Below are positions 19,415-60,347 of a stretch of 64,000 bases of DNA, one piece after another. Made by a program: the position numbers and the translations under genes. The stretch covers positions 18,105 to 82,104 of the forward strand of contig JAUIEF010000001.1 of the NCBI GenBank assembly GCA_030428785.1. The letters are read 5' to 3'. The notes below the pieces were generated by a model. The model saw only the letters and a program-made list of their open reading frames with translations, searched no databases and had not been told where the DNA came from. This DNA is from a bacterium. GTDB lineage: Bacteria > Planctomycetota > B15-G4. How positions within the stretch are numbered: position 1 is the stretch's first letter; each line of letters begins with the position of its first letter.

Positions 19415-20302
19415 GTGACCCCGCTGCTCTCCCTGCTGCTCTGCGTCTCGTTGTCCGGCGCGCTCGTCCACGACGGGCTCGACGAGCGGCTTCACGACAT
19501 CGCGCACCGGCTCGAGGAGTCCGGCCCGCGCGCCGACCTCTACCTGCGGCGCGCCGACGTGCTCCGACGGCTCGGCCGCCACGAGGAGGCGTTCGCCGAC
19601 CTGCTGCGTGCCGGGGAGCTCGATCCGGACGTCCCCGGCCTCGGGCTCGCGCGCGGCCGCCTGTGCGTCGACGTCGGCTGGTGGGGCGCCGCCGAGGGCG
19701 CGCTCGAGACGCACCGCGCGCGCGAGGGCGACGGACACGAGGTCTCGTCGCTGCTCGCCGACGCGGCGCTCGGCGCCGGGCGTCGCGCGGACGCCGTCGC
19801 GCACCGACGCCGGGCGCTCGCCCTGCACGACGCGCCGCCGCCGGACCTCTTCGTACAGCTCGCGCGGGAGGTGCGCGCGGCCGCCGCGGACGCGGAGACG
19901 GGGCGCGCCGAGGCCCTCGCCGTGCTCGAGGAGGGCCTCGCGCGGCTCGGCGCGCTCGCGTCGCTCGTCCTCCCCGCCGTCGAGCTCGACCGCGAGGCGG
20001 GCCGCTGGGACGACGCGCTCGAGCGGCTGCGGGCGCTCGTCGACGCCTCGCCGCGCGCCGAGCGCTGGCTCGCGCTGCGCGGCGACGTCCTCGCCGAGGC
20101 GGGTCGGCCCGACGAGGCGCGCGTGGCCTGGCTCGCGGCGCGCGACGCCCTCGATACGCTGCCCGCGCATCGCCGCTCGACCCCGCTGCTGCGCGAGCTC
20201 GATGCGCACCTCGTCCGCGCGCTGGCGGCATCGCCCGTGGACACCGAGGGCACCCCGACCGACGACCCGTCCCCCGCCGAGCCCCCCGAGGAGCAGCCGT
20301 GA
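19415..20302 (+). CDS. TPR-like helical repeat protein with a signal-like N-terminus
   Basis: Full track ORF with a GTG start. MTPLLSLLLCVSLSGALVH, then A/L/R/E/D-rich helical repeats (ADLYLRRADVLRRLGRHEEAFADLLRAGELDP...). The stop overlaps GTG 20299 of the next gene's frame. Confidence 0.7.
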   Translation: MTPLLSLLLCVSLSGALVHDGLDERLHDIAHRLEESGPRADLYLRRADVLRRLGRHEEAFADLLRAGELDPDVPGLGLARGRLCVDVGWWGAAEGALETHRAREGDGHEVSSLLADAALGAGRRADAVAHRRRALALHDAPPPDLFVQLAREVRAAAADAETGRAEALAVLEEGLARLGALASLVLPAVELDREAGRWDDALERLRALVDASPRAERWLALRGDVLAEAGRPDEARVAWLAARDALDTLPAHRRSTPLLRELDAHLVRALAASPVDTEGTPTDDPSPAEPPEEQP

Positions 20303-45279: not shown

Positions 45280-46703
45280 CGGTCGATGCCCAGCCACGCG
45301 AGGATGTCGTCGTAGAGCCCGCCCTCGTTCGCGTAGAGCGCGTGGTTGCGCGCGGTCTTGAACCACTCGCGCGTGCTCGGCTTGACGGCCTTCGCCGCGG
45401 CGAGCAGGTCCTTCGTGGAGAGCGGCTCGGGGACGCCGCTCTTGAAGGCCGTGCGCAGCTTGGTCTCGATCGCGGTCTCGACGACGGCGCGCAGGTCGGC
45501 GCCGGAGAAGTCCTTGGTCTTGCGCGCCACGGCGCCGACGTCCGCGTCGCCGGCGGGCTTGTCGCGCAGCAGGACGCGCAGGATCTCGGCGCGCGCCTCC
45601 TCGTCGGGCGGCGGCACGAAGAGGATGCGGTCGAAGCGCCCCGGCCGGCGGAAGGCCGCGTCGAGGTGCCACGGCGCGTTCGTCGCGGCGAGCACGAGCA
45701 GGCCCTCGTTGTCCGAGTCGACGCCGTCGAGCTCCGCGAGGAACTGGTTGATGACCTGACGCCCCGCCGACTGGCGCATGTCGCGCCGGCTCGCGGCGAG
45801 CGCGTCGACCTCGTCGAAGAAGAGCACCGACGGCACGTGCGCCCGCGCCGACCCGAAGATGTCGCGCAGGTTGCGCTCGCTCTCGCCGACGTACATCGCG
45901 AGCACGTCGCTGATGGAGACCGAGAGGAAGCTCGCCTCGACCTCGCCGGCCGTCGCACGCGCGAGGTGCGTCTTGCCGCAGCCCGGCGGGCCGTAGAGCA
46001 GGATGCCGCCGCCGGCCTTCTTGCCGTAGGCCGCGTAGAGCTCCGGGTGCTGGAGCGGCTGGATGATCTTGAGGCCGATCTCGTCCTTCAGCGACTGCAT
46101 GCCGCCCACGTCGGCGAAGGTGATCCGGCTGCGCTCGACGTAGGGCTCGAAGCGGCCGCCGGGCGCGTCGCCCTGCGCGAACTCGAGGAGCGGGTCGTCG
46201 TCGGGGTCGTCCGCGCCGAAGGTCGCGTCGTCGTCGGGGCGGCGGAGCGCGTCGCCGGGTCGTCCCGTCCCGGTCGGCGCGTCCCCGCGACGGGGCGGCG
46301 TCGCGCGCGGACGCGCGAGGTGCTCGAGCCGGGGGTCGGTCGCGTCGGCGTCGAGCGCGAGCGCGCGCCGGTAGCACGTGCCCGCCCGTCGCGGGTCCTC
46401 GCGCTCGTGGTGGCAGCGCGCGGCGACGAGCCAGGCGCGCGCGGGGGCGGCGTCGCCCTCGAGCAGCTCGTCGAGCACGGCGAGCGCCTCGCCGAACCGC
46501 CCGAGCCCGTAGAACGCCTCCGCGAGCGCGACCTTGAGGCCGGGCCGGTCGGGGTCGCGCTCGAGCCCCTCGCGGACGAGGCGCTCGACGTCGCGGTAGA
46601 GGTGGCGCTCGAGGAGCATGGCCGCGAGGCTCTCGCGCAGCGGCACGTTGTCCGGGCTCTGCCGCACGGCCTCCCACAGTCCCGCGAGGACGGGATCCTC
46701 CAT
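45276..46703 (-). CDS. AAA+ ATPase (classical AAA clade) with an N-terminal TPR domain
   Basis: Full track ORF; GGAGGAG lies upstream. Walker A GPPGCGKT, Walker B VLFFDEVD, SRH-like ATNAPWHLDAAFRRPGRFDR. The N-terminal ~200 aa are TPR-like. Confidence 0.92.
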   Translation of the reverse strand: MEDPVLAGLWEAVRQSPDNVPLRESLAAMLLERHLYRDVERLVREGLERDPDRPGLKVALAEAFYGLGRFGEALAVLDELLEGDAAPARAWLVAARCHHEREDPRRAGTCYRRALALDADATDPRLEHLARPRATPPRRGDAPTGTGRPGDALRRPDDDATFGADDPDDDPLLEFAQGDAPGGRFEPYVERSRITFADVGGMQSLKDEIGLKIIQPLQHPELYAAYGKKAGGGILLYGPPGCGKTHLARATAGEVEASFLSVSISDVLAMYVGESERNLRDIFGSARAHVPSVLFFDEVDALAASRRDMRQSAGRQVINQFLAELDGVDSDNEGLLVLAATNAPWHLDAAFRRPGRFDRILFVPPPDEEARAEILRVLLRDKPAGDADVGAVARKTKDFSGADLRAVVETAIETKLRTAFKSGVPEPLSTKDLLAAAKAVKPSTREWFKTARNHALYANEGGLYDDILAWLGIDR

Positions 46704-46778
46704 CGACGACTCTCCTCCGAGGTGTCGCGGCGCGCTCCCCGGCAGCCGCTCCGCACGTCGCCGGATCCTAGCAGGTGC

Positions 46779-47354
46779 TCAGCGGGCGCGGCGCACCGGG
46801 CTGAGCGCGAGCGTCAGGCAGGACATCCCGTCGCGCTCGGGGTCGTCCTGCTCGGCGACGTAGGCGGCGAGGTCCTCGAGGCGACGGTTCACCTCGGCGA
46901 GCGCGGCGGGCGAGAGGCGGCCCTGCGCCTGGACGAGGACGTTGCGGCGCCGACCGCGCGGCCGGTCGGGCTGCCGCTCGCCCGCGGCCTCCGCGTAGAG
47001 CCGCGCCGCGAGCCGGAGCATGCCGCGCCCCGCGCGGGCGACCTCCTCGGCGACACGCCGGCTCCCGCCGCCGCGCAGCTCCACCTCCCCGCCGCCGGCC
47101 AGCTCGTAGAGCGTCTCGGGCCGCCGGTCCGTCGCCCGCTCGCCGGCGGCGCGCACCACGCCGACCTCCACGAGCCGGCGCACGTGGTAGTAGAGCGAGG
47201 CCGGCGCCATGCCCACCTGCTCGGCGAGCTCGCGGACGCTCGCCGGACCGAGCCGCTCGAGCGCGCCGAGGAGCCGGTGCGCGGTGGGGCTCGACGCGGC
47301 GCGCACCTGGGCGGGCCGCGAGAGCACGAGCGGGCGACGTCGGCGGCGGGCCAT
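46779..47354 (-). CDS. ArsR-like winged-helix regulator with a C-terminal extension (paralog of 29788..30366)
   Basis: Full track ORF. ASVRELAEQVGMAPASLYYHVRRLVEVGVVRAAGER. Confidence 0.85.
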   Translation of the reverse strand: MARRRRRPLVLSRPAQVRAASSPTAHRLLGALERLGPASVRELAEQVGMAPASLYYHVRRLVEVGVVRAAGERATDRRPETLYELAGGGEVELRGGGSRRVAEEVARAGRGMLRLAARLYAEAAGERQPDRPRGRRRNVLVQAQGRLSPAALAEVNRRLEDLAAYVAEQDDPERDGMSCLTLALSPVRRAR

Positions 47355-47355
47355 G

Positions 47356-47381
47356 GTTTGACAATAGACAAGATTTCAAAC
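47356..47381. promoter_or_regulatory. AT-rich divergent control region with an inverted repeat and a consensus -35 hexamer
   Basis: GTTTGA-14 nt-TCAAAC (47356-47381). TTGACA at 47358-47363 faces the protease gene. This is the only AT-rich stretch for kilobases. Confidence 0.4.
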
Positions 47382-47423
47382 AAACGCCAGACTCTGCGCT
47401 CCCCCCGTCGAGGAGCGACGTCG

Positions 47424-48578
47424 ATGACCGCCACGCCCCCCGCCCTGCGCCGCGCGCTCCCGGTCGCGCTCCTCGCGCTGGCCGCCGCCGCGCCGCCCGT
47501 CTTCCTCCGCCACGACCGCGACGAGGCCCGGTCGCTCGAACGCGCCCGCCCGCTCGCGGCCACGGTCCGCATCGGGTCGATCGGCACGGGCACGCTCGTC
47601 GCGCCGCGCTGGGTGCTCACGGCAGCGCACGTCGTCGACGGCCTGTGGCCCGGCACGGGGACGGTCTTCGTCGAGGACCGCCCGGTCGCCGTGCTCTCCG
47701 TGCACCGGCACCCCGAGGGGGACAGCCCGATCCCCGGGCAGCCGCCGGAGGTCGACCTCGCGCTCGTGCGCCTGGCCGAGGCGGTCGACGTCCCGCCCGC
47801 GCCGCTCGCCGCGACGGACGTCCGGCCGGGCGACGCCGTGGTCGTCGCGGGCTACGGCGACTTCGCGCTCGCGGGCACGGGCGACGTCCGGCCGCCCGAC
47901 GGACGGCGGCGCGCCGCGACGAACACGGTGGACGAGGTCGGCGAGCTGCGCTTCGTCATGCACCTCGACCGCGACGGCACGGAGCTCGAGGGCGTGAGCG
48001 CGCCGGGCGACTCCGGCGGGCCCGTCTACGTCGAGACGGACGACGGCCCCGCGCTCGCCGGCGTGAGCTCCGGCGGCTTCGGCGCGTGGGGCGCGTACGG
48101 CATGGGCGACCTCGCCGTGCGCGTGCGCGTGTTCGCGCCGTGGATCCGCGAGACGACCGCGCGCGTCGACGCGGGCGAGGTCCCGATCCCGGAGTGGACG
48201 ACGACGGACGCGCCGCCCGCGACGCCCGCCGGCCGCACGCTCACCGCCTTCGTCGACGCGCTCTCCGCCGTCGACCCGTCCCGGCTCGTCGCCTTCGCCG
48301 AGGAACGGCTCGCGCCGCGCGCGACGCGCGGGCTGCCGGCGGACGAGTGGGCGCGCGAGACGGCGCTCTTCGGCGTGCAGGGCGTGCCGCTGCGCGTCGT
48401 GCGCTGCGCCGCGTCGGCGGAGGAGCTCGTCGCGCTCCTGTCCGTGGACGAGGGCGCCGACTGGCTGCACCTCCGCGTCGCGCTCGGCGACGACGGACGC
48501 GCGACGACGCTCGTGCTCTCGCCGGGCGCGCCGCCGGTCGACGCGGACGAGGACGCGGCGCCCGACGACGGACGCTGA
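47424..48578 (+). CDS. Secreted trypsin-like (S1) serine protease with a C-terminal domain of unknown function
   Basis: In the frame of track ORF 45342..48578. ATG 47424 is preceded by GAGGAG. Triad context LTAAHVV, DLALVRL, GDSGGPV. Confidence 0.88.
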   Translation: MTATPPALRRALPVALLALAAAAPPVFLRHDRDEARSLERARPLAATVRIGSIGTGTLVAPRWVLTAAHVVDGLWPGTGTVFVEDRPVAVLSVHRHPEGDSPIPGQPPEVDLALVRLAEAVDVPPAPLAATDVRPGDAVVVAGYGDFALAGTGDVRPPDGRRRAATNTVDEVGELRFVMHLDRDGTELEGVSAPGDSGGPVYVETDDGPALAGVSSGGFGAWGAYGMGDLAVRVRVFAPWIRETTARVDAGEVPIPEWTTTDAPPATPAGRTLTAFVDALSAVDPSRLVAFAEERLAPRATRGLPADEWARETALFGVQGVPLRVVRCAASAEELVALLSVDEGADWLHLRVALGDDGRATTLVLSPGAPPVDADEDAAPDDGR

Positions 48579-48676: not shown

Positions 48677-49372
48677 TCACGCCTCGTCGAGCATCCGCCG
48701 CGCCCAGCCCTGCTCGCGGAGCCGCGCGCGCAGGCGCTGCCAGCGCTTGACGACCGCCGCCTCGCCGAGGTCGAGCCGGCGCGCCGCCTCCGCGCAGGTG
48801 AGCCCCTCGAGGCCGCAGTGCACGAGGAGCTGCCGGTCCTCGTCGGCCAGCTCGCCGACGCGCTCCACGAACGCGCCGACCGCCTCGTCGCGACCGAGCC
48901 GCCGCGAGAGCGACGTCACGTCGTCGGGCACGTTCGCGAGCGCGAAGAGCCGCGTCGTCGGCCCGCCCTCCCCCGCCGCCCACGGCGAGCGCCGCAGCTT
49001 GCGGAAGCCCTCGAGGAGCACGTTCTTCGCGATGGTGAAGAGCCACGCGCGGAAACTGCGCGTCGCCGGGTCGAAGCGCGGGAAGGCAGTCACCGCGCGC
49101 ACCCATACTTCCTGCACGAGGTCGGCCGGGTCGACGTGCATGCGCATGGAGCGTCGGATGCGGAGCTGCGCCCAGGCGTGGAGCGCCGGCGCGACCCGCT
49201 CGTAGAGCGCGGCGAACTGCGCGGCGTCCCCGCCCTGCGCGCCCGCGGCGAGCCGCTCGGTGGGCGCGTCGAGGGGCGGCACCGGCTCCGCTCCGGACGG
49301 CGACTCCGGACCGGAGGCGGACGGCCCCCCGCCGGCGGGGAGCGGCTCGTCGCTGGACGGTCGGTCGACCAT
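48677..49372 (-). CDS. ECF-type RNA polymerase sigma-70 family factor (no adjacent anti-sigma gene)
   Basis: Last 231 codons of track ORF 48677..51385, from ATG 49372. Sigma-2 region DLVQEVWVRAVTAFPRFDPATRSFRAWLFTIAKNV. Sigma-4 region LEGLTCAEAARRLDLGEAAVVKRWQRLRARL. Confidence 0.9.
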   Translation of the reverse strand: MVDRPSSDEPLPAGGGPSASGPESPSGAEPVPPLDAPTERLAAGAQGGDAAQFAALYERVAPALHAWAQLRIRRSMRMHVDPADLVQEVWVRAVTAFPRFDPATRSFRAWLFTIAKNVLLEGFRKLRRSPWAAGEGGPTTRLFALANVPDDVTSLSRRLGRDEAVGAFVERVGELADEDRQLLVHCGLEGLTCAEAARRLDLGEAAVVKRWQRLRARLREQGWARRMLDEA

Positions 49373-49502
49373 GCTGCTCCCGCGCTCTCGGACCTCGGCC
49401 GACGCGCGACGCCCCCCGCGCCGCGACCGTTCGACGCCCCGCAGCGTCCGCCCCGTCCGCGAGACGGTCAAGCCCGGCGCACCGCCCCGGCGCCGCGACC
49501 GG

Positions 49503-49537
49503 GATTTTCCCGTCCACCGGACGGCCGTTCCGGTCAC
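49503..49537 (+). promoter_or_regulatory. Conserved promoter-like element P1 upstream of the kinase-CHAT operon (candidate ECF target promoter)
   Basis: GATTTTCCCGTCCACCGGACGGCCGTTCCGGTCAC. It is 29/35 identical, with no gaps, to 55229-55263. It ends 63 nt before GTG 49601. Confidence 0.6.
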
Positions 49538-49600
49538 CACCCCCGCGACGGCAGGCACCGCGTATCCTGTCGGACGCCGAGGCCAGGAGAGGGCCCCCCC

Positions 49601-51646
49601 GTGGACACGGAACAGCGCGACGCGCTCGTCTTCGACTTCGTCGACCACCTGCTCGACGACGTGGAGTCGGGGGAGATCCGGCCGCTCCACGAGTACCTGC
49701 GCCGCTTCCCCGGCTGCGAGGAGGACGTGGCGCGCGAGTACTTCGCGATGCTCAAGGTCCCGGAGGACGAGGCGGACGAGGAGCTGCGCGTCGGGCCCTA
49801 CCGGCTGCTGCGGCGGCTCGGGCGCGGCGGGCAGGGCGTCGTGTGGCTCGCGGAGGACGCGCGCATCGACCGGCGGGTCGCGCTCAAGATGCTCTCGACA
49901 CCGCTCGGCGGCGTGCCCGAGGCGAAACGCGAGCGGCTGCGGCGCGAGGCGGAGCTCGTGAGCCGGCTCGAGCACCCGGACCTGTGCGCGGTGTACGACG
50001 CGGACCTCACGGGCGAGGTCCCGTACGTCGCGATGCGGCTCGTCGAGGGACGGACGCTCGCGGCGGTGCTCGCGGAGGCGCGGTCGGGAGCGGCTCCCGG
50101 AGTCGACCCGACGGAAGGCGGGCCCGCCGGCATCGACGCGCGCGCGACGCTCCCGGTCCGGCCGTCGACGCCGGAGGAGGTCGCGGTGCTCTGCGCGTGG
50201 TTCGAGCAGGCCGCGCGCGCGCTCCACGCGGCGCACGAGGCGGGCGTCGTGCACCGCGACGTCAAGCCGGGCAACCTCATGGTCACGCCCGAGGGGCGGC
50301 CGGTCGTGCTCGACTTCGGGCTCGCGCGCACGCTCGCGCACGACGACGCGACGCTCACGGCGACGGGCGAGGTCTTCGGCACGCTCGCGTACGTCGCGCC
50401 GGAGCGGCTCGGTCGCGGCGCGGGCCGCGCGCCCGATCGGCGCGTCGACGTCTACGCGCTGGGCGTCACGCTCCACGAGGCGCTCACGCTGCGCTGCCCG
50501 TACGCCGCGGACACGCCGGAGGAGCTGCTCGAGGTCGTGCTGCGCGGCGAGGCGCCGTCGACGCGGCGGGACGACCCGTCGCTGCCGCGCGACCTCGACG
50601 CCGTGTGTCTCACCGCGATGGCGCCCGAGCCGTCGCGCCGCTACGCCACGGCGGAGGCCTTCGCCGAGGACCTCGCCGCCGTGCGCGAGGGACGCCCCGT
50701 CGCGGCGCGTCCGCGCTCCGCCTCGACGCGTCTGCTGCGGCGCGCCTCGCGCCACCCGTGGACGGCCGGCGTCGCCGCGGCGCTCGTGCTCGTCACGGCG
50801 GCGGCCGTCGCGCTCGGCGAGGGCTGGCGCGACGAGGCCGCGGCGCACGAGCGCTCGCACGAGGACCACGTCCTCGCGCACGCCGCCTTCCTGCGCCTGC
50901 GCGACGCGCACCGCGAGGCGCGCGTGCCGGACCCCGCCGACGAGGCGGTCGTCGCGCGCTTCATCCCGCCCGACGCGACGCTCGAGCGCACGCTCATCCT
51001 CGGCTCGCCGCTCTCGCGCGACGCGGCCGAGCTCTTCGTGCGCTACGCGGCCGACGCGACGCGCGGCACCGACGACGCCGTCGAGGCCCGCGCGCCGCGC
51101 GGCCGGATCGTCGATGCGACGCCGACCTTCGTGCTCGCGGGCGCTGCGTCCGACACGCCGCGCGCGCTCGCGCTGCGCATCGAGCAGCCCGGCACGGGCG
51201 TCCCGCCGCGCGTCCGTCGGATCGAGTGGCCGGCCGGCGCGGACAGCGCGTCGTGGACGGCGGAGGACCCGCTCGCCGCGGGGCACGGGCGCTGGACCGT
51301 CTTCGCGATCGGACCGGACGACATGGTCCCCGACGACGCGACGCCGCTCGCGTCCGCGGTGTTCGAGCGGGTCGACGCCGCGCACGTCGACGCGCTGCTC
51401 GCGGACGTGGAGCCCACGGGCGACCCGACCCTCGACGCGGAGCTCCGCGCGCTCGCGCTGCTCCGCGACGGCCTCGGCGCCCCCGCGCGCGACCTGCTCG
51501 CCGACGCGCCGCGCGTCGACGACACGCCCGCGCGCGCGCGCCGCCTCCTGCTCGAGGCCTGGGCCGCCGGCCTGCTCGGCGAGCGCTCGCGCGTCGCGAC
51601 GCTCCGCGCGGACTGGCTCGCGCTCCGCGGAGCCGACGGCGGGTGA
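49601..51646 (+). CDS. Membrane-spanning Ser/Thr protein kinase with an extracytoplasmic C-terminal domain
   Basis: In the frame of track ORF 47645..51646. GTG 49601 is preceded by AGGAGAG. GRGGQGVVW, VALKM, VHRDVKPGN, DFGLAR, YVAPE. TM helix WTAGVAAALVLVTAAAVAL, then ~270 aa of unrecognised sequence. Confidence 0.9.
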   Translation: MDTEQRDALVFDFVDHLLDDVESGEIRPLHEYLRRFPGCEEDVAREYFAMLKVPEDEADEELRVGPYRLLRRLGRGGQGVVWLAEDARIDRRVALKMLSTPLGGVPEAKRERLRREAELVSRLEHPDLCAVYDADLTGEVPYVAMRLVEGRTLAAVLAEARSGAAPGVDPTEGGPAGIDARATLPVRPSTPEEVAVLCAWFEQAARALHAAHEAGVVHRDVKPGNLMVTPEGRPVVLDFGLARTLAHDDATLTATGEVFGTLAYVAPERLGRGAGRAPDRRVDVYALGVTLHEALTLRCPYAADTPEELLEVVLRGEAPSTRRDDPSLPRDLDAVCLTAMAPEPSRRYATAEAFAEDLAAVREGRPVAARPRSASTRLLRRASRHPWTAGVAAALVLVTAAAVALGEGWRDEAAAHERSHEDHVLAHAAFLRLRDAHREARVPDPADEAVVARFIPPDATLERTLILGSPLSRDAAELFVRYAADATRGTDDAVEARAPRGRIVDATPTFVLAGAASDTPRALALRIEQPGTGVPPRVRRIEWPAGADSASWTAEDPLAAGHGRWTVFAIGPDDMVPDDATPLASAVFERVDAAHVDALLADVEPTGDPTLDAELRALALLRDGLGAPARDLLADAPRVDDTPARARRLLLEAWAAGLLGERSRVATLRADWLALRGADGG

Positions 51647-54600
51647 GGCCTGCCGCGTTCGTGCTCCTCGCGCTGCTCGCCGCCGGCGCGCCGGCCCAGG
51701 ACACCGACGGCGCCCTCGCCCGCGCGACCGCGCTCCAGGACCGCGCGCTCGCGCTCGCCGAGTCGGGCCGACCGGGCGACGCCGCCGACGCCTTCCTCGA
51801 GGCGGCGCCGCTCTTCGGCGAGGCTGGCCGCGACGAGGACCGCGCCAAGTGCCTCCACAACGCGGGCGCGCTCTACACGGACGCCGGCCGTCACGAGGAG
51901 TCCGTCGACGCCTTCGCGCGCGCGCAGACGTGGTGCGCCCGCGTGCGGAAGGCGTCGTGGGCCGCGAGCTCCGTGTACGGCCGGGCGCTCGCGCTCGCCG
52001 CGCTCGACCGCGAGGGCGAGGCCGTCGAGGCCTTCGCGATCGCCGTCGCGCTCTTCGAGCAGCTGGGCGACGACGGGCAGCTCGCGATCGCCACGCACGA
52101 CCTCGGCGCGTCGCTCGCGAACCTGCGGCGGTTCGACGAGTCCGCAGAGACCTTCCTGCTCGCGGAGCGACGCACGCTCGCGATCGGCGACCTCGCGGGC
52201 GCCGCGATGTCCGCCGAGTCGGCCGGCACGGTGCTGCGCTCCGCGGAGCGTCACGCCGAGTCGGCCGAGGCGCTCGACCGCGCGGTCGCGCGCCGCCTCC
52301 CCGACGACGGGCGGCCCGTCGGCGGCCCGGGCACGGTCGGCGGGCTGCTCCGCGAGCGCGGCACGACGCTCCTCATGCTCAACCGCTGGGACGACGCGCT
52401 CGCCGACTTCGAGGCGGCGGCGCCGATGCTCGAGGCGGCGGGCGACGCGTCGGGCCTCGCGTGGCTGCACTGGCACCGCGGCCAGACGCTGCGCACGCTC
52501 GGCCGCTACGAGGAGGCGGTCGCCGCCTTCGACGCGTCGGAGCGGCTCGCCGCGGGCCGCGACCCGGAGCTCCTCGCGAACCTGCTCCTGGGCCGCGCCG
52601 ACGTGCTCGTCTACCGCGGCCGTCTCTCGGAGTCGCTCGAGGTGCTCGAGGAGGCGTCGGCGCTCGTCGACCTGCTCGCCGGACCGCCCGGCTCGCGTCC
52701 GCGCACCGCGGTCCCGCACGGCCTGCTCCAGCTCCGCGGCTCGGTCGCGACGCGGCGCGGCGAGGTGCTGCGCAACCTCGGCCACTTCGGCGACGCGCTC
52801 GCCGAGCTCGCCGCGGCCGAGGAGCACCACCGCGCGTCGGGCAAGCGCGCGCCGCTCGCCGCGGCGATCCTCGACCGGGCGGAGCTGCTCGCCGAGCTCG
52901 GACGGCAGGAGGAGGCGCTCGCCGGCTTCGACGAGGCCGGCCGGCTCTTCGCGGAGCTGGGCGACGCCGAGTGGGGCGCGCACGTCGAGATCGGTCGCGC
53001 GACGGCGCTGCGGCTCGCCGGCGAGCCGCGCCTCGCGCTCGACGCGCTGCGCCGCGCGCGTCCCGTCGTCGAGGGCCTCGGCAACGCGCGGCAGGTCGCG
53101 CACATGGACTTCGAGCGCGTCATCCTGCTGCGGACGCTCGGGCGCACGGGTCACGCGGAGGAGCTGCTCGAGGAGATCGAGGAGGGCTTCGTCGCGTACG
53201 GCGGGCGCGTCGCGGAGGCGCGCGCGGCGCTCGAGCACGCGGCGCTCCACCACCTCGCCGGGCGCGACGAGGACGCGCTCGCGGAGGCGGAGCGCGCGGA
53301 CCTCCTGTGGGAGGCGGAGGGCCACCTCCAGCAGCGCGTGCGGAGCGCGGCGATGCGCGGCGACCTGCTCGCCGGGCTCGGGCGCGACGACGAGGCGCTC
53401 GACGCGTACGACGTCGCGGTCGACGGGCTCGAGGCGCTGCTCGTCGGGCGGACCGCCGGGCTCGGCGCGGAGAGCGTGACCGGCCTGCGCGCGGCCTTCG
53501 CGGAGATCGTGCCGCCGTACCTCGCGCTCGCGGCGGCGCGCGCGGCGGACGCCGACGTCGCGCGGGCGTGGCGCGTCGTCGAGGTGTTCCAGGGGCTCGG
53601 CGCGGCGCAGCTCGTCGCGGAGCGCGGCCGCCTGCGCGACGACGCGCTGCCGCCGGACGTCTCGCGGACGCTGCGCGACGCGCGGCGCGCGCTCAGCGAG
53701 GCGGCGGACGCGGTCGTCGGGGACGCCGCCGGCGACGACGACGCCGGGCGCGCGGAGCTCGCCGAGCGGCGTCGGGAGCTCGCGCGCGCGGAGGACGACG
53801 CGCGGCTCGTCGCGCGCGCGGCGGTCGTGCCGGAGGTCGCGTCGCTCGCGGAGGTCGCGGCGGCGCTCGGGAGCGGCGAGACGCTCGTGCAGTACGCGGC
53901 GCTCGGCGCGCGGGTGCACGCGCTCGTCGTGTCCGCCGACGGTGCGCGGCTCGTCCCGATCGGTCCGTCCGAGGCGGTGGACGCCGCCGTGGAGCGCGTG
54001 CTCGACCGGCTCGACCCGGGGCGACGTCGACCGGCGCCGCTGCCCGCGGAGCTCGCCGCGGACCTGCGCGCGCTCGGCCGCCTCGTGCTCGACCCGGTGC
54101 TCGCGGGGCGCGCGCCGCCCGCGCGGCTCGTCGTCGTGCCGTCCGGACTGCTGTGCCGCGTGCCGTTCGGGGCGCTGCTCACGGCGGACGTCGCGCCCGG
54201 CGCGGAGCAGGCCGCCTGGCCCTTCCTCGCGGCGGCCGTCGACACGACCTGCGCGCACTCGGGCACGACGTGGATCGCGATGCGACGCCGCGCCGATGCG
54301 CCGCGCGACGCCGACGGCCCGGCCTACGTCGCGTTCGCGGACCCCGAGGACGCGAGCGTGCGCTCGCGCGCCGCGACGCTCGCGGCCGGCGCGCCGTCGA
54401 CGCACGACGGCGCCCCCGCGGGCGCGCCCGGTCCGGACGCCCCGCCCGCCCCCGACCGCGGACCGCGCGGGCTCGCGTCGCTGCCGCGCACGATCGACGA
54501 GGTCGCGGCCGTCGCGCGGCTCTTCGCGGGCGACGGGGACGCCGCCGCGCTCGACGCGCTCGAGGAGGCGCTGCTCGTCGGCGGCGCGGTCCCCGGCGTC

Positions 54601-55119
54601 GTGAGCGGCGACGACTTCCTGCTCCTGCTGCGCGGCCGCGCGACCGAGGCGCAGCTCCGTCGTCGCGCGACGGTGCGCGGCGCGCGCGTGCTCCACCTCG
54701 CGTGCCACGGCGCCGCCGACCCGGTGACGCCCGGCCTGTCGCGCCTCGAGCTCGGACGCGCGGGCACGGAGGACGGCCGGCTCTTCACCGACGAGCTCGC
54801 GACGCTCGACCTCTCGTGCGAGCTCCTCGTGCTCTCGGCCTGCGAGACGAACGCCGGGCCGCTCCGCGCGCTCGAGGGCGTCGACGGACTCACGCGCGCC
54901 GGGCTCGCGGCGGGCGCGCGCGCCGTGCTCTCGACGCTCTGGCGCGTGCCCGACGACGGCGCGCGGCGGCTCGTGACGTCCTTCCACGAGGCGTGGCTCG
55001 GCGAGGGGCTCCCGCGCGCGCGCGCCCTCGGCGAGGCCCGGCGCCGGGCGATCCGCGAGGGCCTGCCCGTCCGGGCGTGGGCGGCCTTCCAGCTCTGGGA
55101 CGGCGCCCCGGCGGACTGA
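51643..55119 (+). CDS. Secreted TPR repeat plus CHAT (caspase-like) domain protein
   Basis: In the frame of track ORF 49843..55119. GTG 51643 overlaps the kinase stop (GTGA). Signal (M)RPAAFVLLALLAAGAPAQD. ~900 aa of TPR-like repeats. CHAT dyad context VLHLACHGA (His codon 54706-54708) and LVLSACETN (Cys codon 54841-54843). Confidence 0.9.
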   Translation: MRPAAFVLLALLAAGAPAQDTDGALARATALQDRALALAESGRPGDAADAFLEAAPLFGEAGRDEDRAKCLHNAGALYTDAGRHEESVDAFARAQTWCARVRKASWAASSVYGRALALAALDREGEAVEAFAIAVALFEQLGDDGQLAIATHDLGASLANLRRFDESAETFLLAERRTLAIGDLAGAAMSAESAGTVLRSAERHAESAEALDRAVARRLPDDGRPVGGPGTVGGLLRERGTTLLMLNRWDDALADFEAAAPMLEAAGDASGLAWLHWHRGQTLRTLGRYEEAVAAFDASERLAAGRDPELLANLLLGRADVLVYRGRLSESLEVLEEASALVDLLAGPPGSRPRTAVPHGLLQLRGSVATRRGEVLRNLGHFGDALAELAAAEEHHRASGKRAPLAAAILDRAELLAELGRQEEALAGFDEAGRLFAELGDAEWGAHVEIGRATALRLAGEPRLALDALRRARPVVEGLGNARQVAHMDFERVILLRTLGRTGHAEELLEEIEEGFVAYGGRVAEARAALEHAALHHLAGRDEDALAEAERADLLWEAEGHLQQRVRSAAMRGDLLAGLGRDDEALDAYDVAVDGLEALLVGRTAGLGAESVTGLRAAFAEIVPPYLALAAARAADADVARAWRVVEVFQGLGAAQLVAERGRLRDDALPPDVSRTLRDARRALSEAADAVVGDAAGDDDAGRAELAERRRELARAEDDARLVARAAVVPEVASLAEVAAALGSGETLVQYAALGARVHALVVSADGARLVPIGPSEAVDAAVERVLDRLDPGRRRPAPLPAELAADLRALGRLVLDPVLAGRAPPARLVVVPSGLLCRVPFGALLTADVAPGAEQAAWPFLAAAVDTTCAHSGTTWIAMRRRADAPRDADGPAYVAFADPEDASVRSRAATLAAGAPSTHDGAPAGAPGPDAPPAPDRGPRGLASLPRTIDEVAAVARLFAGDGDAAALDALEEALLVGGAVPGVVSGDDFLLLLRGRATEAQLRRRATVRGARVLHLACHGAADPVTPGLSRLELGRAGTEDGRLFTDELATLDLSCELLVLSACETNAGPLRALEGVDGLTRAGLAAGARAVLSTLWRVPDDGARRLVTSFHEAWLGEGLPRARALGEARRRAIREGLPVRAWAAFQLWDGAPAD

Positions 55120-55228
55120 GCCCCGGCGCGGCGACACGTCCCCGCGCCCACGCGGCCCGGCGGCGCCCCGGCGGCGCGCGGAACGGCCCCGGAAGGCCCG
55201 CGCACGGCCGCGGATCGCCCCCCCCAAC

Positions 55229-55263
55229 GATTTTCCTGTCCACCGCGCGGGCGCCCCGGTCAC
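55229..55263 (+). promoter_or_regulatory. Conserved promoter-like element P2 upstream of the NHL-LamG gene
   Basis: GATTTTCCTGTCCACCGCGCGGGCGCCCCGGTCAC. Same length and register as P1. It ends 60 nt before ATG 55324. Confidence 0.6.
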
Positions 55264-55323
55264 GGGGGAGATGTCCGACGCGGGCCGCGGGGCCCGCGGA
55301 CAGCACAGAACAGGAGATCGACC

Positions 55324-57108
55324 ATGACCGCCCCCACCACCCTCCGTCGCCTCACGACGACCCTGGCCGCCGCGCTCGTCGCGACGACCGCCGCCACCGC
55401 CCAGCACCACGTCGCCTACCAGGAGCTCACGCCCTTCGGAATCACCCCGCCGCCGGCCTTCGGCGAGGACCTGCTCCTCGACCCGGTCGACGTGGCCGTC
55501 ACCGGCTGGGGCAGCTCCGTCTCGTGGACCTACGTCGCGGACGCGGGCGCCAACCGCGTCCTGCGCTGGGTCATCAACCCGGTCGGCACCGCCGTCGCGC
55601 CCGCCGAGTGGGGCGCCTTCCAGTTCGGCCCGCACGGCGTCGCCGTCAACGACATCCCGAACCACGACAAGAACGAGCGGGTCTACGCGACCGGCGTCGA
55701 CGCCTTCGGCGAGCCCTCGGTCCAGGTGTTCGACCGCTGGGGCAACTGGCAGGCCAGCTTCAAGGGCGCGCTCAACGACCACTTCATCGACCCGCGCGGC
55801 GTCGCCGTCGGCCCCGAGGGCAACGTCTTCGTCGTGGACATGGCGCGCCGCGTCGTCGAGGAATTCGACCCGGTGATCATGGAGATCAGCAGCGACTCGA
55901 TCCCGATCAACACCTACGGCGGCTGCACCGGCATGGTGCCGCTCGACGTGAGCGTCGACCTCATGCGGCGCGTGCACGTCGTGGGCCACGAGTTCTTCCC
56001 GTTCCCGGTCGGCAAGCAGGAGGTCTTCGAGTACGGCGTGAGCTGCCCGCCGGTGACCGAGATGAGCGGTCCGGTCCTCGCCGGCGTCGACGCGCGGCCG
56101 CTCGACCGCAACCGCATCGCGCGGCAGGACGGGACCGTGGCGACGGCCCTCTGGACCGACACGGTGCTGCCGTTCTGGGGCTTCACGAGCGGCGGCATCC
56201 AGACGATCCCGACCGACACGGCGGCGGCCGAGGACCTCGGCGGGCTCGAGGAGCAGCGCACGTGGCGCATCCAGGCGACGACCGTCGGCGGCGACCGGCA
56301 GCAGCGCTGCGACCTGCGCACCTACGTGACGGACCGCGCGGACGGCGAGGTGCACGTGCTCGAGAGCAAGGAGCTCTCCGTGCCGCGGCCCGCGGGCATC
56401 GTCGCCTGGTGGGACCTCGACGAGACGAGCGGCGGCGCGGCCGACGACACGATGGACACGGCGAACGGCGCGTGGAGCGGGTCGCCGCAGCCGGTCGACG
56501 GCGTCGTGCGGCGCGCGATGTCCTTCGACGGCGGGACGTCCGGCGTGTCGGTCTCCGACACGGACCTCGACGTGGGGCTCTCCGACTTCAGCGTCGAGGC
56601 GTGGATCCGTCCGGCGACGCAGGCCGGCACGGTGACGATCCTCGACGCCCGTGACGCGACGGGCCTCGGCTGGCACGTCGTGCTCGTCGACGGGCAGCTC
56701 GGCCTCGGCATCGACGACGGCGCGGACAGCGACCTCACGGTCTCGGCCGTGCCGCTGGACGACGGCCTCTGGCACCACGTCGCGGCGGTCGTCGAGCGCG
56801 GCGTCGGGACGCGGCTCTACGTCGACGGCTCGCTCGTCGCGACGGGCGCCAGCGGCGGCGTCGCCGGCGACCTCACGTCCGGCGCGGCGCTCGAGATCGG
56901 CCGCGAGGGCGCGGCGGGCGCCACGGGTCTGCTCGGCACGCTCGACGAGGTGAGCCTCTACCACGCGGCGCTCACGTCCGGCGAGGTCGGCTCCGTCGAG
57001 AACGCGCGCTGCGCGGGCAAGCACCTGCCCCCGCTCGCGCCCGGCGGCGGCGGCATCTTCGGCACGACGGGCGTCGCCGTGAGCTGGAAGTCCTTCGTGA
57101 AGCTCTAG
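55324..57108 (+). CDS. Secreted NHL-type beta-propeller plus LamG (concanavalin-A-like lectin) domain protein
   Basis: Full track ORF; AGGAGA lies upstream. Signal TLAAALVATTAATAQ. NHL-like blades (PHGVAVN, PRGVAVGPEGNVFVVD). LamG_3-like SFDGGTSGVSV...FSVEAWIRP...GLWHHVAAV...LYVDGSLV...LDEVSLY. Confidence 0.85.
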   Translation: MTAPTTLRRLTTTLAAALVATTAATAQHHVAYQELTPFGITPPPAFGEDLLLDPVDVAVTGWGSSVSWTYVADAGANRVLRWVINPVGTAVAPAEWGAFQFGPHGVAVNDIPNHDKNERVYATGVDAFGEPSVQVFDRWGNWQASFKGALNDHFIDPRGVAVGPEGNVFVVDMARRVVEEFDPVIMEISSDSIPINTYGGCTGMVPLDVSVDLMRRVHVVGHEFFPFPVGKQEVFEYGVSCPPVTEMSGPVLAGVDARPLDRNRIARQDGTVATALWTDTVLPFWGFTSGGIQTIPTDTAAAEDLGGLEEQRTWRIQATTVGGDRQQRCDLRTYVTDRADGEVHVLESKELSVPRPAGIVAWWDLDETSGGAADDTMDTANGAWSGSPQPVDGVVRRAMSFDGGTSGVSVSDTDLDVGLSDFSVEAWIRPATQAGTVTILDARDATGLGWHVVLVDGQLGLGIDDGADSDLTVSAVPLDDGLWHHVAAVVERGVGTRLYVDGSLVATGASGGVAGDLTSGAALEIGREGAAGATGLLGTLDEVSLYHAALTSGEVGSVENARCAGKHLPPLAPGGGGIFGTTGVAVSWKSFVKL

Positions 57109-57251: not shown

Positions 57252-60200
57252 TCAGCGCGCCGCGAGGTCCACGACGAGATCGAGCGACACGTCCTCCGTC
57301 GGACCGGCCACGAACGTCCGGCGTGCGACGGCGTCGTCCTCGAGGCCGTCGCGATAGCGGTAGTGACGCCCCGGCACGACGAGCAGCTCGTAGCGCCCCT
57401 CGCCCAGCAGGATCAGGGAGTACGCGCCGTCGGCGACGGTGCGCGCTCGCGGATCGCCGTCGTCGTCGACGCGGGCCAGCAGCAGCGTGACCTGCTCGCC
57501 GAACACGTCGCCCGCCGGTGTGCGCAGCGTCCCCGCGACGGTCCCGCACCGCTCGAGTCGCAGGACGTGCTCCGCGGGTCCCGCGTCGACGGGCGTCGGC
57601 GCGGACGACGGCAGCCAGCCGGACGCCGACGCGGAGAGCCCGGCGCCCGCCGGCGCGCCGTCGGGGAACTCGAACCGACCCTCGTCGTCCGTGCGGCCGG
57701 AGACGCGGGCCTCGCCGGTGCGGTCGTGCATCTGGACGCCGGCGTGCGCGAGCGGCTCGCCGGTCCACGCGTCGACGACGCGCCCCGCGACGGGCCGCCC
57801 GCCGAACGCGAGGTCGACGGTCGTCGTGACACCGGGCTCGACCTCGACGACCGTCGCCTCCGAGAGACCGCGCGCGCTCGCCGCGACGCTCGCCGGCCCG
57901 GACTCCGCGGGGTCGAGCACGACCTCGAACTCCGCGACTCCGCGGGAGTCGGCCCGGACCTGCTGCCCCCGGTTCTTCCCGCCGAGGGTCGCGTGGACCT
58001 GAACGTACGAGCCGGGCTGCGTGCCCGTCACGACGCCCGTGAGCCGCGCACGCGGCGGCTGGACGAGCGTCACGGCGAGGGTCTCGCCCGTGCCGACGTG
58101 CACGACGCGCTCGTCGGTCGGCGCGTCGGCGTCGCCGAGCCGCACGCGCCACGCGCCGGGGCCGGGCAGCGTGAAGCGGGCCGTCCCGCGGCGCGTGTTC
58201 CGGGAGGCTTGCGGCTGGTGGAACGGGTGCGCGGGCGGCGCCGCGTCACCGGCGGGCTCGAGGTGGACGGTGCCGCTCTCCGGCGCGCCGGCGCGGTCCG
58301 TCACCGAGACCTCGAGCACGGGCGGCGCCGCGAGACGGATGACCGGCAGCTCGCGCATCTCCTCGTCCTCGAGCTCCAGTTCGGCGACGTGCACGCTCGT
58401 GTCCTTCGCCGAGACGGTGAGCGTCCAGGCGCCCGCGTCGAGGCCGGGCAGCTCGTACGTCCCGTCGTCGCGGGGCCGCGTCGTGCGGCGCCCGCTCCAG
58501 GCGTTCCCTCCGGCCGAGGCCACCTGCACCGAGCAGTGCTCGACCGAGACGCCCGGCGGCACCTCGACGCGCCCGCTCAGCACGGCGCGCGGCGCGAGCA
58601 CGAGCGTGCGCTCCACGGGGTCGGAGCCCCACGGCGCGCCCTCGATCCGCTCCGTCCAGCGGCTCGTGCCCCGGGAGAGCGTGAGCTCGCGCTCGGCGGG
58701 GCAGAGGTCGAGCGCGAGCGTGCCGGATGCGGGGTCCTCGGGCGTCGCGCGGTGCGTCCGCAGGCCGTCGACGACGCGCCACGAGACGTGCTCGACGGCG
58801 ACGGGCGTGCCGTCCGGATGCACGAAGCGGAGCACGGCGGGCGTGAGCCGGCGCAGGCGCAGCTCGACATCGTCGCGGCCCGGCGCCACGCCGGTCGCGC
58901 GCGCGGGCTCGTGACCCGGCGCGTCGGCGTAGACGCCGTAGGACGTGCGCTCGAGTCCGACGATCCGGAAGCGCCCGTCGGCGTCGGTGCGGTCGGTGAG
59001 GAAGCGCGCGGCGCGCGCCGTCTCGTCGGTGGCGGTCACGAAGGACGTCGCCGTGATGCGGTCGCCCTCGACGACGGAGAGCAGCTCGTCGTGCACCGCC
59101 TCCGGACCGAGGTCGGGGAACTCCATGACGGAGAGGCGCACGACGGCGTGCGCGAGCGGGAGGCCGTCCTCGTCGAGGACGCGCCCGGCGATCGCGCCGC
59201 GCTCGCGGACGACGACATCGGGGAGCGTGACGACGTCGCCGGCGACGGGCAGCGCCGACGCGTCGCCGGACCGTGGGACGAACCCGCTCGCGACGGGCGC
59301 GACGACGTCCGGATCGAGCGCGCGGACGATCATCGGCGGGACACGTTCCGGGTGCACGAGGAGCCGGGCGTCGGCGAGCGGCCCGGGCGGGAGGCCGACG
59401 AGACGCCACGCACCGGCGGCGTCGGTCCGCGTGCGGAACGGCTCGTACGCGACGGTCCACCAGGAGTAGGTCACGGCGATCCCGCCCCGCGAACCGCCGC
59501 ACGTGAAGCCGCGCGCCTGCAGCTCGCAGCGTTGCCGGCCGGGCCACACGCCCTCGACCGCGACGGGGACGTCGGCGAGCCCGCCCCCCGACGCATCGAC
59601 GACGCGCCCGACGAGCGTCACGCCGCGGTCCAGGGGCCAGTCGCCGAGCACGTGGGGCTCGACGTCGTCGGGATCGGACGGCTGCGCGCCGTCGTCCGCG
59701 GACGGCCAGATCTCGTCGAGGTCCCGGTTGCACTCGTGGATGCTCGGGACGCGACCCGGCGCGCGCGCGACGAGCGTGCCGCCGAGCGAGCGTGCCCGGG
59801 TCATCGAGGAGTTCGTGCGGCGGGCCGGTCCGGGGAGCGCGACGGTGAGCTCGAAGCGCCCGTCGGCGTCGACGGTCGTCGAGGGCATGTCGGCGAGCGC
59901 CGCCATCCCGGCGAGCTCGCGCAGGTCGCCGGCGAGCACGCGGCGGGACACGTCGCCGAGGCCGAGCAGCGTCGCGGTCTCCTTGTCCGGAACGAAGGAG
60001 ACGCGCCCTTCGGAGAGCGGCGCGCCGGCCTCGTCGACGAGGCGACCCGTGAACCGCGCGACGAGGTCGGGGACGTCCGACGCGGCGACGTCGTCCGGCG
60101 CGTCGGCGGTCGTCGGCGAGGCGTCGACGGCGATCGGCACCGGCGCGCCGACGTCGGGGCGTGGGAGCGCGTCCGGCGCCTCGACGACGACGCCGCGCGC

Positions 60201-60347
60201 GCTCGCGGCGGTGATCCGCGCGCCGGCGTCCGCAGCGGGCTCGCCCGCCACGAGCCACCACGCGGCGCCGAGCCCGACCAGCAGCCCGAGCGCTCCGAGG
60301 ACCGGCAGCCCGCGCGCCGCGCCCGTCTCACCGCCCCGCCTCGTCAT
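57252..60347 (-). CDS. Large membrane-anchored protein with multiple carboxypeptidase-regulatory-like (CarboxypepD_reg) domains
   Basis: Last 1031 codons of track ORF 57252..62147, from ATG 60347. N-terminal TM helix LPVLGALGLLVGLGAAWWLVAG. Repeated GR[LV]VD..G.P[LV]... and TD..GRF motifs. Confidence 0.85.
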   Translation of the reverse strand: MTRRGGETGAARGLPVLGALGLLVGLGAAWWLVAGEPAADAGARITAASARGVVVEAPDALPRPDVGAPVPIAVDASPTTADAPDDVAASDVPDLVARFTGRLVDEAGAPLSEGRVSFVPDKETATLLGLGDVSRRVLAGDLRELAGMAALADMPSTTVDADGRFELTVALPGPARRTNSSMTRARSLGGTLVARAPGRVPSIHECNRDLDEIWPSADDGAQPSDPDDVEPHVLGDWPLDRGVTLVGRVVDASGGGLADVPVAVEGVWPGRQRCELQARGFTCGGSRGGIAVTYSWWTVAYEPFRTRTDAAGAWRLVGLPPGPLADARLLVHPERVPPMIVRALDPDVVAPVASGFVPRSGDASALPVAGDVVTLPDVVVRERGAIAGRVLDEDGLPLAHAVVRLSVMEFPDLGPEAVHDELLSVVEGDRITATSFVTATDETARAARFLTDRTDADGRFRIVGLERTSYGVYADAPGHEPARATGVAPGRDDVELRLRRLTPAVLRFVHPDGTPVAVEHVSWRVVDGLRTHRATPEDPASGTLALDLCPAERELTLSRGTSRWTERIEGAPWGSDPVERTLVLAPRAVLSGRVEVPPGVSVEHCSVQVASAGGNAWSGRRTTRPRDDGTYELPGLDAGAWTLTVSAKDTSVHVAELELEDEEMRELPVIRLAAPPVLEVSVTDRAGAPESGTVHLEPAGDAAPPAHPFHQPQASRNTRRGTARFTLPGPGAWRVRLGDADAPTDERVVHVGTGETLAVTLVQPPRARLTGVVTGTQPGSYVQVHATLGGKNRGQQVRADSRGVAEFEVVLDPAESGPASVAASARGLSEATVVEVEPGVTTTVDLAFGGRPVAGRVVDAWTGEPLAHAGVQMHDRTGEARVSGRTDDEGRFEFPDGAPAGAGLSASASGWLPSSAPTPVDAGPAEHVLRLERCGTVAGTLRTPAGDVFGEQVTLLLARVDDDGDPRARTVADGAYSLILLGEGRYELLVVPGRHYRYRDGLEDDAVARRTFVAGPTEDVSLDLVVDLAAR

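Follow-up and report, generated by a model that had tools for sequence, protein, structure and literature searches.

This account concerns three neighboring genes in a planctomycete, within a 64,000-nucleotide stretch of contig JAUIEF010000001.1 (GenBank assembly GCA_030428785.1, positions 18,105 to 82,104) that we call the window. They encode a sigma factor of the extracytoplasmic function (ECF) type, a membrane-spanning Hanks-type Ser/Thr kinase and an exported protein in which tetratricopeptide repeats (TPRs) precede a caspase-like CHAT protease domain. Our main finding is that the predicted periplasmic ectodomain of the kinase, a distant DUF928-like module, and the TPR-CHAT protein travel together, whatever cytoplasmic module the ectodomain is attached to. 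The locus resembles a split form of DdvA/DdvS, the periplasmic TPR-CHAT system of Myxococcus, with a kinase as its output. The anatomy of the locus, its conservation, its intact catalytic residues and the swapping of its output domains are there to be observed. On whether the sigma, kinase and CHAT genes make up one envelope-signaling module that works in the steps we propose below, our own opinion is evenly divided. The parts of the locus, in window coordinates, are as follows.

48677-49372, minus strand: ECF sigma factor, 231 aa (G+C at third codon positions, GC3, 0.96; Pfam and NCBIfam; family alignment)
49373-49600: divergent sigma-kinase intergenic region, 228 nt, promoters presumed
49601-51646, plus strand: Hanks-type Ser/Thr kinase, whole gene
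49601-49744, plus strand: N-terminal 48-aa domain of the kinase (no Pfam match; hidden Markov model (HMM) survey of loci)
49787-50758, plus strand: Hanks-type Ser/Thr kinase catalytic domain (Pfam Pkinase, 1e-32)
50759-50818, plus strand: single transmembrane (TM) helix of the kinase, aa 387-406, WTAGVAAALVLVTAAAVALG
50825-51640, plus strand: predicted periplasmic DUF928-like ectodomain, aa 409-680 (profile search; AlphaFold2 (AF2) model)
51643-55119, plus strand: exported TPR-CHAT protein, 1158 aa (Pfam; orthologue alignment; AF2; Foldseek)
54706-54708, plus strand: codon CAC of the catalytic His1022 (HLACHG)
54841-54843, plus strand: codon TGC of the catalytic Cys1067 (LSACET)

Ectodomain and protease travel together

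The close relatives of the locus proteins all come from metagenome-assembled genomes (MAGs) of Planctomycetota. The nearest, in the 5.29-Mb MAG CBDFJQ01 (locus L001), shares 59% identity in the kinase, 49% in the CHAT protein and 77% in the sigma factor, and it repeats the gene order of the window: divergent sigma gene, kinase, CHAT gene with a 4-nt overlap and then a gene with a LamG_3 domain. Full-length kinase homologues at 43% identity (L003) and 39% (L002) have a TPR-CHAT gene directly after them, and in L004/L005 the kinase, also at 39%, overlaps by 4 nt with the TPR-rich gene after it, which the contig end cuts short. In L088 the sigma, kinase and CHAT genes form a co-directional operon; the sigma gene thus adjoins in the window, L001 and L088. 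The adjacency of kinase and CHAT genes, which the initial annotation had seen in this one stretch, persists to about 30% identity, and the 4-nt overlap often persists with it.

We built a profile from five ectodomains and searched it against 1.84 billion representative proteins, which gave matches in 111 clusters. About half of these have the kinase-TM-ectodomain architecture. About a third are short (280-400 aa), joining a single TM helix to that C-terminal domain, and some large proteins repeat only the central beta part of the ectodomain. Two of the short forms, P0274 and P0281 (L087, L089), have a TPR-CHAT gene directly after them. Another, P0321 (367 aa), lacks a kinase domain altogether: the 48-aa domain known from the kinase N-terminus is followed by a TM helix and the DUF928-like domain. 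Counting the eight ectodomain loci that were found without a CHAT query, a signal-peptide TPR-CHAT gene comes straight after the ectodomain gene in six, a truncated TPR gene in one and a subtilase gene in one. A further locus, L006, was reached through a CHAT homologue and so stands outside this count. There a sigma-like protein is followed by a zf-HC2 single-pass anti-sigma protein and then by an exported TPR-CHAT. By hhalign (probability 94%, E = 1.2e-7) the ectodomain of that anti-sigma protein is a homologue of the one on the kinase, the two having in common the motifs SPxGxI..RPxF, LAPGxY/W and FEVV.

Our control was a set of 80 planctomycete loci retrieved by an alignment of the full kinase, comprising one orthologue and 79 paralogs without the ectodomain. 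None of the 79 paralog loci has an adjacent CHAT gene, and the orthologue alone among the 80 has both the ectodomain and an adjacent CHAT gene. The ectodomains of the paralogous kinases are mostly of WD40, TPR or FGE-sulfatase type, and the only CHAT gene among their loci, in L027, is 8 kb away. Six of eight versus none of 79 gives a Fisher p of 5.5e-8, a value which, like the other Fisher test below, overstates significance because the loci are phylogenetically related. A metagenome scan with a CHAT alignment added L095 as one further locus with kinase, ectodomain and CHAT; the remaining 79 CHAT genes of that scan are more distant and come without the ectodomain.

The initial annotation had also supposed that the CHAT protein and the ectodomain meet in the periplasm. 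That the two co-travel behind a kinase, behind an anti-sigma-like N-terminus and behind the 48-aa domain alone is strong comparative support for such a meeting, as far as sequence can speak to it. The same facts bear on the dullest explanation of the locus, that sigma, kinase and CHAT genes are neighbors by chance or co-expression and have no functional interaction. Planctomycete genomes are indeed very rich in kinases, ECF sigma factors and TPR proteins (PMC11032199). Adjacency that persists to about 30% identity and across cytoplasmic modules, and is missing in 79 paralog controls, leaves us thinking chance scarcely credible.

Some observations from these loci stand on their own. The P0321 locus (L092 7249-11135; also L093 and L094) has a divergent sigma gene of the same family as that of the window, with a Peptidase_S8 subtilase and a radical-SAM gene downstream. 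L002, from the Planctomycetota MAG GCA_041398565.1, holds a second TPR-CHAT gene (15904-19761, minus strand; 1285 aa) convergent to the first, and Tad-pilus genes upstream of the kinase. Eight of the 80 metagenome CHAT loci (L110, L120, L121, L127, L149, L152, L158 and L172) display a third ECF/CHAT arrangement, in the order ECF sigma, soluble anti-sigma-like protein of about 200 aa, and TPR-CHAT without an obvious signal peptide. The anti-sigma-like protein has HxxxCxxC in some cases and a beta-rich C-terminus, 'GQVLG...LxELGEF'. This third arrangement appears to be a cytoplasmic system.

A probable exported protease with an intact dyad

The window CHAT protein has the three features expected of a TPR-CHAT caspase-like protease: a CHAT domain above threshold (PF12770 at aa 807-1151, 4e-45, 155 bits against a cut-off of 24), a His-Cys dyad and preceding TPRs, with four TPR_12 matches in Pfam and a superhelix spanning roughly aa 21-724. 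Its N-terminus, MRPAAFVLLALLAAGAPA before QD, reads as a Sec signal peptide of 18 residues (aa 1-18). Might this be the artefact of a wrong start, as the initial annotation feared? The frame plot, the NCBI gene call and the N-termini of orthologues agree that it is not. The frame switches exactly at about 51646, so the protein has no longer cytoplasmic N-terminus; NCBI calls the same 1158 aa; and in our alignment the orthologues all begin in signal-peptide-like fashion, one of them lipobox-like. We predict, then, that TPR-CHAT is periplasmic.

The two motifs that had suggested an intact dyad, HLACHG and LSACET, are present, and H1018, H1022 and C1067 within them are invariant in 17 relatives. 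In a profile comparison, H1022 and C1067 align with the catalytic H585 and C627 of the craspase Csx29. Structural relatives took some finding: phmmer with the CHAT domain returned nothing from the Protein Data Bank (PDB), and profiles were required. The full-length CHAT profile matches DdvA chain 8rot_B with E = 6.6e-15. In the AF2 model of the protein (pLDDT 83) about 30 helices of TPR type lead into a caspase-like alpha/beta domain, and the best Foldseek matches of the model are separase (E = 2e-14), DdvA (8rot and 8rw5, 2e-12) and craspase Csx29 (1e-10).

A protein may look like a protease and yet do its work by binding. TPR-CHAT could be a non-catalytic or self-processing periplasmic co-receptor, which would bind a ligand and the ectodomain and regulate the kinase by binding or dimerization. 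The TPR region is large enough to make one consider this (about 700 aa), the dyad mutants of DdvA were without phenotype under the conditions tested, DdvA TPR-CHAT dimerizes (PMC11506125), and ligand-induced dimerization commonly controls receptor kinases (PMC13147305). We think it unlikely all the same. The dyad and its surrounding motifs are invariant in 17-26 relatives, which argues that catalysis has been retained, and at one locus a subtilase stands in for CHAT, which points to proteolysis as the property the two share.

The receptor kinase and its ectodomain

The kinase domain (Pfam Pkinase, aa 67-353, 1e-32, 114 bits) is active-looking by its sequence. All its Hanks motifs are intact (GRGGQG, K96, E116, H218-R-D220, N225, D238-F-G and APE), and the catalytic motif columns are invariant in 43 relatives. 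Hydropathy bears out the single TM helix and the extracytoplasmic domain of about 270 aa in the initial annotation: one helix at aa 387-406, preceded by RRASRH, and then a C-terminal domain of 272 aa. The basic residues on the N-terminal side of the helix place the C-terminus outside.

The ectodomain itself finds no Pfam match in the window protein, even at E = 10. Its relatives do better. PF06051 (DUF928) is matched by 5 of 27 short-form and 3 of 43 kinase-form relatives, with E from 4e-7 to 1e-5 over profile positions 21-158 of 184; the one score recorded is 25.1 bits, slightly under the gathering cut-off of 26. Since DUF928 is the only Pfam family to match the region (8 of 70 relatives), we call the ectodomain distantly DUF928-like. 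An AF2 model from 30 sequences (pLDDT 92.3) consists of a helical subdomain, an eight-strand Ig-like beta-sandwich and TPR-like helical hairpins. Foldseek finds for the ectodomain only generic Ig, FN3 and macroglobulin sandwiches, and we attach no functional meaning to the C3 matches. In cyanobacteria DUF928 genes may lie beside CHAT genes; we saw no DUF928 genes next to cyanobacterial plasmid TPR-CHAT genes, and a DUF928-positive member gave no match to plasmids in tblastn. One member of the ectodomain family, P0301 (562 aa), has an ECF sigma factor (Sigma70_r2/r4, PF07638) fused to a TM helix and a DUF928-like domain, and would be a one-component version of the module.

The architecture of this family speaks to another explanation, in which CHAT and the ectodomain are an output pair: the ectodomain would be the anchor, inhibitor or immunity partner of a secreted protease, and the sigma factor and kinase would control expression only. 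The kinase stop codon overlaps the CHAT start in GTGA at 51643-51646, just as first described, and translational coupling of this sort suggests a fixed stoichiometry, as for an enzyme and its partner. Secreted LamG, FG-GAP and CarboxypepD_reg proteins also lie downstream in several loci. In every case, however, a TM helix connects the ectodomain to a signaling module, be it a kinase, an anti-sigma-like N-terminus or the sigma factor of P0301. That is the architecture of a sensor rather than an inhibitor, and we regard the output pair as improbable.

A sigma factor that is not of the ECF43 kind

The window sigma factor is of the ECF type (group IV), whose members have sigma2 and sigma4 domains only and are about 200 aa long. 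Pfam matches are to Sigma70_r2 (5e-15, 55.6 bits, cut-off 24), to PF07638 Sigma70_ECF (41.4 bits, cut-off 21.1) and to sigma70 r4_2 (24.1 bits, slightly under the cut-off of 25.7). Among NCBIfam models, TIGR02937 sigma70-ECF scores 69.8 bits (cut-off 42.9); the nearest, TIGR02984 Sig-70_plancto1, scores 72.6 bits, far under its cut-off of 183.75. Homologues at 50-60% identity number in the hundreds and nearly all match PF07638. By sequence, therefore, this is a member of a large PF07638-type planctomycete family that is strongly kinase-linked.

No anti-sigma gene flanks it, as had been noted; its 3' neighbor is the convergent trypsin-like protease gene at 47421-48578, and the map is consistent with a monocistronic sigma gene. 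The initial annotation had feared that the sigma family might lack kinase linkage and, at the same time, had taken EcfP/PknT of Vibrio parahaemolyticus as its analogy. As to kinase linkage, the fear was not borne out. Among 73 informative paralogous kinase loci in Planctomycetota MAGs, a divergent PF07638-family sigma gene lies just upstream of the kinase in 35. Planctomycete ECF groups that are kinase-linked and have no anti-sigma factor were described by Casas-Pastor et al. as ECF59-62 and ECF217 (PMC7826278), and our 35 divergent pairs reproduce that pattern: a conserved Ser/Thr kinase neighbor, no anti-sigma factor, in Planctomycetota.

The analogy with EcfP held in part. The window sigma factor does share with ECF43 a co-encoded Hanks kinase (divergent, at 228 nt) and no anti-sigma gene. 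It fails in the defining residue. The DxxDxxQE motif of sigma2.2 contacts RNA polymerase. In the ECF43 sigma factors EcfP and EcfK this motif is lost, its acidic DxxD being replaced by a Thr-containing QTTA or STTA, and charge is regained by phosphorylation of Thr (PMC8999054, PMC13147305). The window sigma factor keeps the acidic motif as D81-P-A-D84-L-V-Q-E, and the consensus in 17 relatives is DP[QEA]D[LV]VQEVW, so it is not ECF43/EcfP-like. The conserved Ser/Thr that was to be looked for at the ECF43 phosphosite is thus not there; DPADLVQE occupies the position. Conserved candidates lie elsewhere in the family: T38, which is invariant, T140 in the linker G137-P-T-T140-R-L, and T153. A linker phosphosite is important for EcfK (PMC13147305).

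What, then, could hold sigma factor and kinase together? The 48-aa domain at the N-terminus of the kinase, with the pattern FDFVD..G...PL..YL.RFP in planctomycete kinases (paralogs L008-L086), is a candidate. It has no Pfam match. In our HMM survey a divergent sigma gene accompanies it in 28 of 40 loci, versus 7 of 33 loci for kinases without it (Fisher p = 5e-5). Further, P0321, which adjoins a divergent sigma gene, has no other cytoplasmic domain. From this correlation and the architecture of P0321, we propose that the domain contacts the sigma factor, as a sigma-docking or anti-sigma-like module.

This brings us to an explanation in which the kinase works chiefly as an anti-sigma factor. 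The sigma factor would be sequestered by the kinase N-terminal domain; site-1 cleavage by CHAT and then intramembrane proteolysis would release it, as for DdvA and RseP; and kinase activity would serve other targets or autoregulation. The N-terminal domain tracks the presence of a sigma gene, it stands alone in the cytoplasm in P0321 beside a divergent sigma gene, the intact acidic motif for RNA polymerase means that the sigma factor could be active once free, and the same ectodomain is found on a zf-HC2 anti-sigma protein. On the other side, the kinase catalytic residues are all kept in 43 relatives. Phosphorylation is the presumed mode of regulation for ECF groups that have a linked kinase and no anti-sigma factor, and the demonstrated one for ECF43 (PMC7826278, PMC8999054), and the domain is only 48 aa long, with no detectable similarity to known anti-sigma domains. 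We judge this explanation quite unlikely.

The intergenic region deserves a word. The window and L001 (9752-10000) share GTCCACC..CGGCC..GTCAC and CCGTAT.CTG in a pairwise alignment; across 23 paralog loci no shared motif came up. A promoter and terminator scan found no sigma-70-type consensus sites in 49373-49600. Many sigma-kinase intergenic regions are merely 64-115 nt long.

A proposed mechanism

The mechanism we favor would run as follows. TPR-CHAT would bind the DUF928-like ectodomain in the periplasm. Once the TPR superhelix had captured a signal, CHAT would cut the kinase in its ectodomain or juxtamembrane segment, and this cut would relieve inhibition of the kinase. It would be the counterpart, between separate proteins, of the site-1 cleavage in trans that has been proposed for the fused DdvA. 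The kinase, holding its cognate ECF sigma factor through the N-terminal domain, would phosphorylate it, probably at a family-conserved Thr (T38, linker T139/T140 or T153) and not at the sigma2.2 site of ECF43. The phosphorylated sigma factor would become active or be released.

There is precedent for the individual steps. PknT and PknS phosphorylate their sigma factors directly, and the periplasmic domain of PknS is inhibitory (PMC8999054, PMC13147305). The periplasmic TPR-CHAT of DdvA is the proposed site-1 protease, cutting its own linker in trans and so opening the way for RseP (PMC11506125).

Several points weigh against this mechanism. Ectodomain binding, cleavage, kinase activation and sigma phosphorylation are all steps that we infer, and for DdvA, too, cleavage that depends on CHAT awaits demonstration (PMC11506125). 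We called signal peptides and topology by eye and from hydropathy rather than with a dedicated predictor, and the relatedness of the loci tempers our statistics. The distant kinase-CHAT loci L002 and L004 have no sigma gene nearby, so the bond to the sigma factor is looser than that between kinase and CHAT. A k-mer search of 23 sigma-kinase intergenic regions turned up no convincing ECF-type promoter in common. Having retained its acidic sigma2.2 motif, the window sigma factor need not be intrinsically inactive, and the activation logic of ECF43 does not apply to it.

A broader idea goes further than the module just described, and we offer it as a tentative one. The DUF928-like domain and an exported TPR-CHAT or subtilase may constitute a portable, proteolysis-based cassette for periplasmic sensing, used with varied outputs: a Hanks kinase, an anti-sigma-like domain or a sigma fusion. 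The kinase version would then be a receptor kinase switched on by regulated cleavage of its ectodomain, feeding an ECF sigma factor through phosphorylation outside sigma2.2.

Gene calling and neighboring genes

The window is 75-80% G+C and has spurious open reading frames of more than 1000 aa in every frame, which is why genes were called by codon-position G+C, using GC3 in a frame plot. The sigma, kinase, CHAT and 55324-57108 reading frames have GC3 of 0.96-0.99 and G+C of about 0.5 at second positions (GC2), and the high-GC3 frame changes exactly at the borders of these four. Rival long reading frames at the locus are without this GC3/GC2 coding pattern. GC3, Pfam and NCBIfam together uphold the coordinates first given to the ECF sigma gene, the divergent kinase gene and the CHAT gene. 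The surrounding genes are these.

43891-45297, minus strand: TPR protein
45276-46703, minus strand: TPR-AAA+ protein (CDC48/IetA-like ATPase)
46779-47354, minus strand: HTH protein (regulator)
47421-48578, plus strand: secreted trypsin-like protease, convergent with the sigma gene
55324-57108, plus strand: secreted 594-aa protein with a Laminin_G_3 (ConA-like) domain (Pfam, 2e-25)
57252-60347, minus strand: CarboxypepD_reg protein

The block at 43891-48578 consists of TPR, TPR-AAA+, HTH and trypsin-like protease genes, the last with weak LmuA and Avs1b matches in PADLOC. It is not syntenic in the closest relative, and we saw no link between it and the sigma, kinase and CHAT genes. We rejected, for want of evidence, a reading of the locus as a defense system; PADLOC gave generic kinase matches only, and nothing for CHAT.

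Downstream of CHAT, the secreted LamG_3 gene has a syntenic counterpart, of 596 aa, in just the closest relative (L001 15646-17436); L002, L003 and L087-L089 have no such gene in this position. It is possibly a target or an accessory gene, and its membership of the module is uncertain. Beta-rich secreted proteins do recur 3' of CHAT, with LamG_3 in the window and L001 and FG-GAP repeats in L087 (5473-7497) and L089 (11770-13296). They may be regulon members or accessory sensors.

Comparison with known systems

Much of what the locus is made of has been described: ECF-kinase pairs, a periplasmic TPR-CHAT anti-sigma factor and the CHAT/subtilase context of ECF54 (PMC7826278, PMC8999054, PMC11506125, PMC13147305). 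The initial annotation knew of no coupling of CHAT to an ECF sigma factor and a Ser/Thr kinase. A link between CHAT and ECF sigma factors alone is known, from the DdvA/DdvS structure (PMC11506125) and from the gene context of ECF54 (PMC8999054); for CHAT, kinase and ECF in combination, our full-text searches brought no account to light. Nor did those searches yield a receptor kinase in translational coupling with a separate exported TPR-CHAT, a DUF928-like ectodomain as constant partner of TPR-CHAT, or a single cassette wired to kinase or anti-sigma-like outputs.

EcfP/PknT and EcfK/PknS (the latter from Xanthomonas citri) resemble the locus in placing an ECF sigma factor, without an anti-sigma factor, beside a Hanks kinase that crosses the membrane once and carries a periplasmic sensor domain. 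The EcfK/PknS system also has a linker phosphosite and, at the N-terminus of PknS, a helical extension (PMC13147305). The window sigma factor differs in being of PF07638 type and keeping DPADLVQE, and no protease partner has been described for PknT or PknS. ECF59-62 and ECF217 (PMC7826278) are, like the window locus, planctomycete, and are ECF groups with a conserved Ser/Thr kinase neighbor and no anti-sigma factor; the main text and review describe neither a CHAT partner nor a DUF928-like ectodomain for them. ECF54 is a group regulated by proteolysis, and its conserved gene neighborhood includes carboxypeptidase, subtilase and CHAT (PMC8999054). Like the window locus it links an ECF sigma factor without an anti-sigma factor to CHAT or subtilase, a pairing also echoed in L092, where a subtilase replaces CHAT. 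Its model member, however, is actinobacterial, with no kinase described, whereas the protease of the window is tied to a kinase ectodomain and not directly to the sigma factor.

Why should any of this matter? Little is known of signal sensing by kinase-linked ECF sigma factors, and PknT and PknS, whose ligand has yet to be identified, are no exception. If our proposal is true, the locus encodes a protease-activated bacterial receptor kinase that feeds an ECF sigma factor. The analysis also puts a DUF928-like domain into a functional context for the first time, and it marks the 48-aa domain as a candidate sigma-docking module in Planctomycetota, a phylum with unusually many kinases and ECF sigma factors in its genomes.

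The closest comparison remains DdvA/DdvS. DdvA is the only characterized periplasmic TPR-CHAT anti-sigma factor, and its trigger and cleavage step are hypothetical. Since protease and membrane partner are here distinct, and the cassette is wired to a kinase or to an anti-sigma-like protein, this natural split version should allow the proposed site-1 step to be tested in trans on proteins that can be separated. The differences are plain. DdvA carries its zinc anti-sigma domain, TM helix and periplasmic TPR-CHAT on one polypeptide. In the window, TPR-CHAT is a separate signal-peptide protein, and its membrane partner, which has no zf-HC2 or other zinc anti-sigma domain, is made of the 48-aa domain, a Hanks kinase and a DUF928-like ectodomain. 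The host is a planctomycete, and no defense island surrounds the locus. What the two systems share is a TPR-CHAT of the separase/craspase type with a His-Cys dyad, periplasmic in DdvA and predicted to be so here, genetically tied to an adjacent ECF sigma factor and to a single-pass membrane protein. DdvA is among the best profile and fold matches of the window protein, and for both systems protease-triggered signaling across the membrane is what has been proposed.

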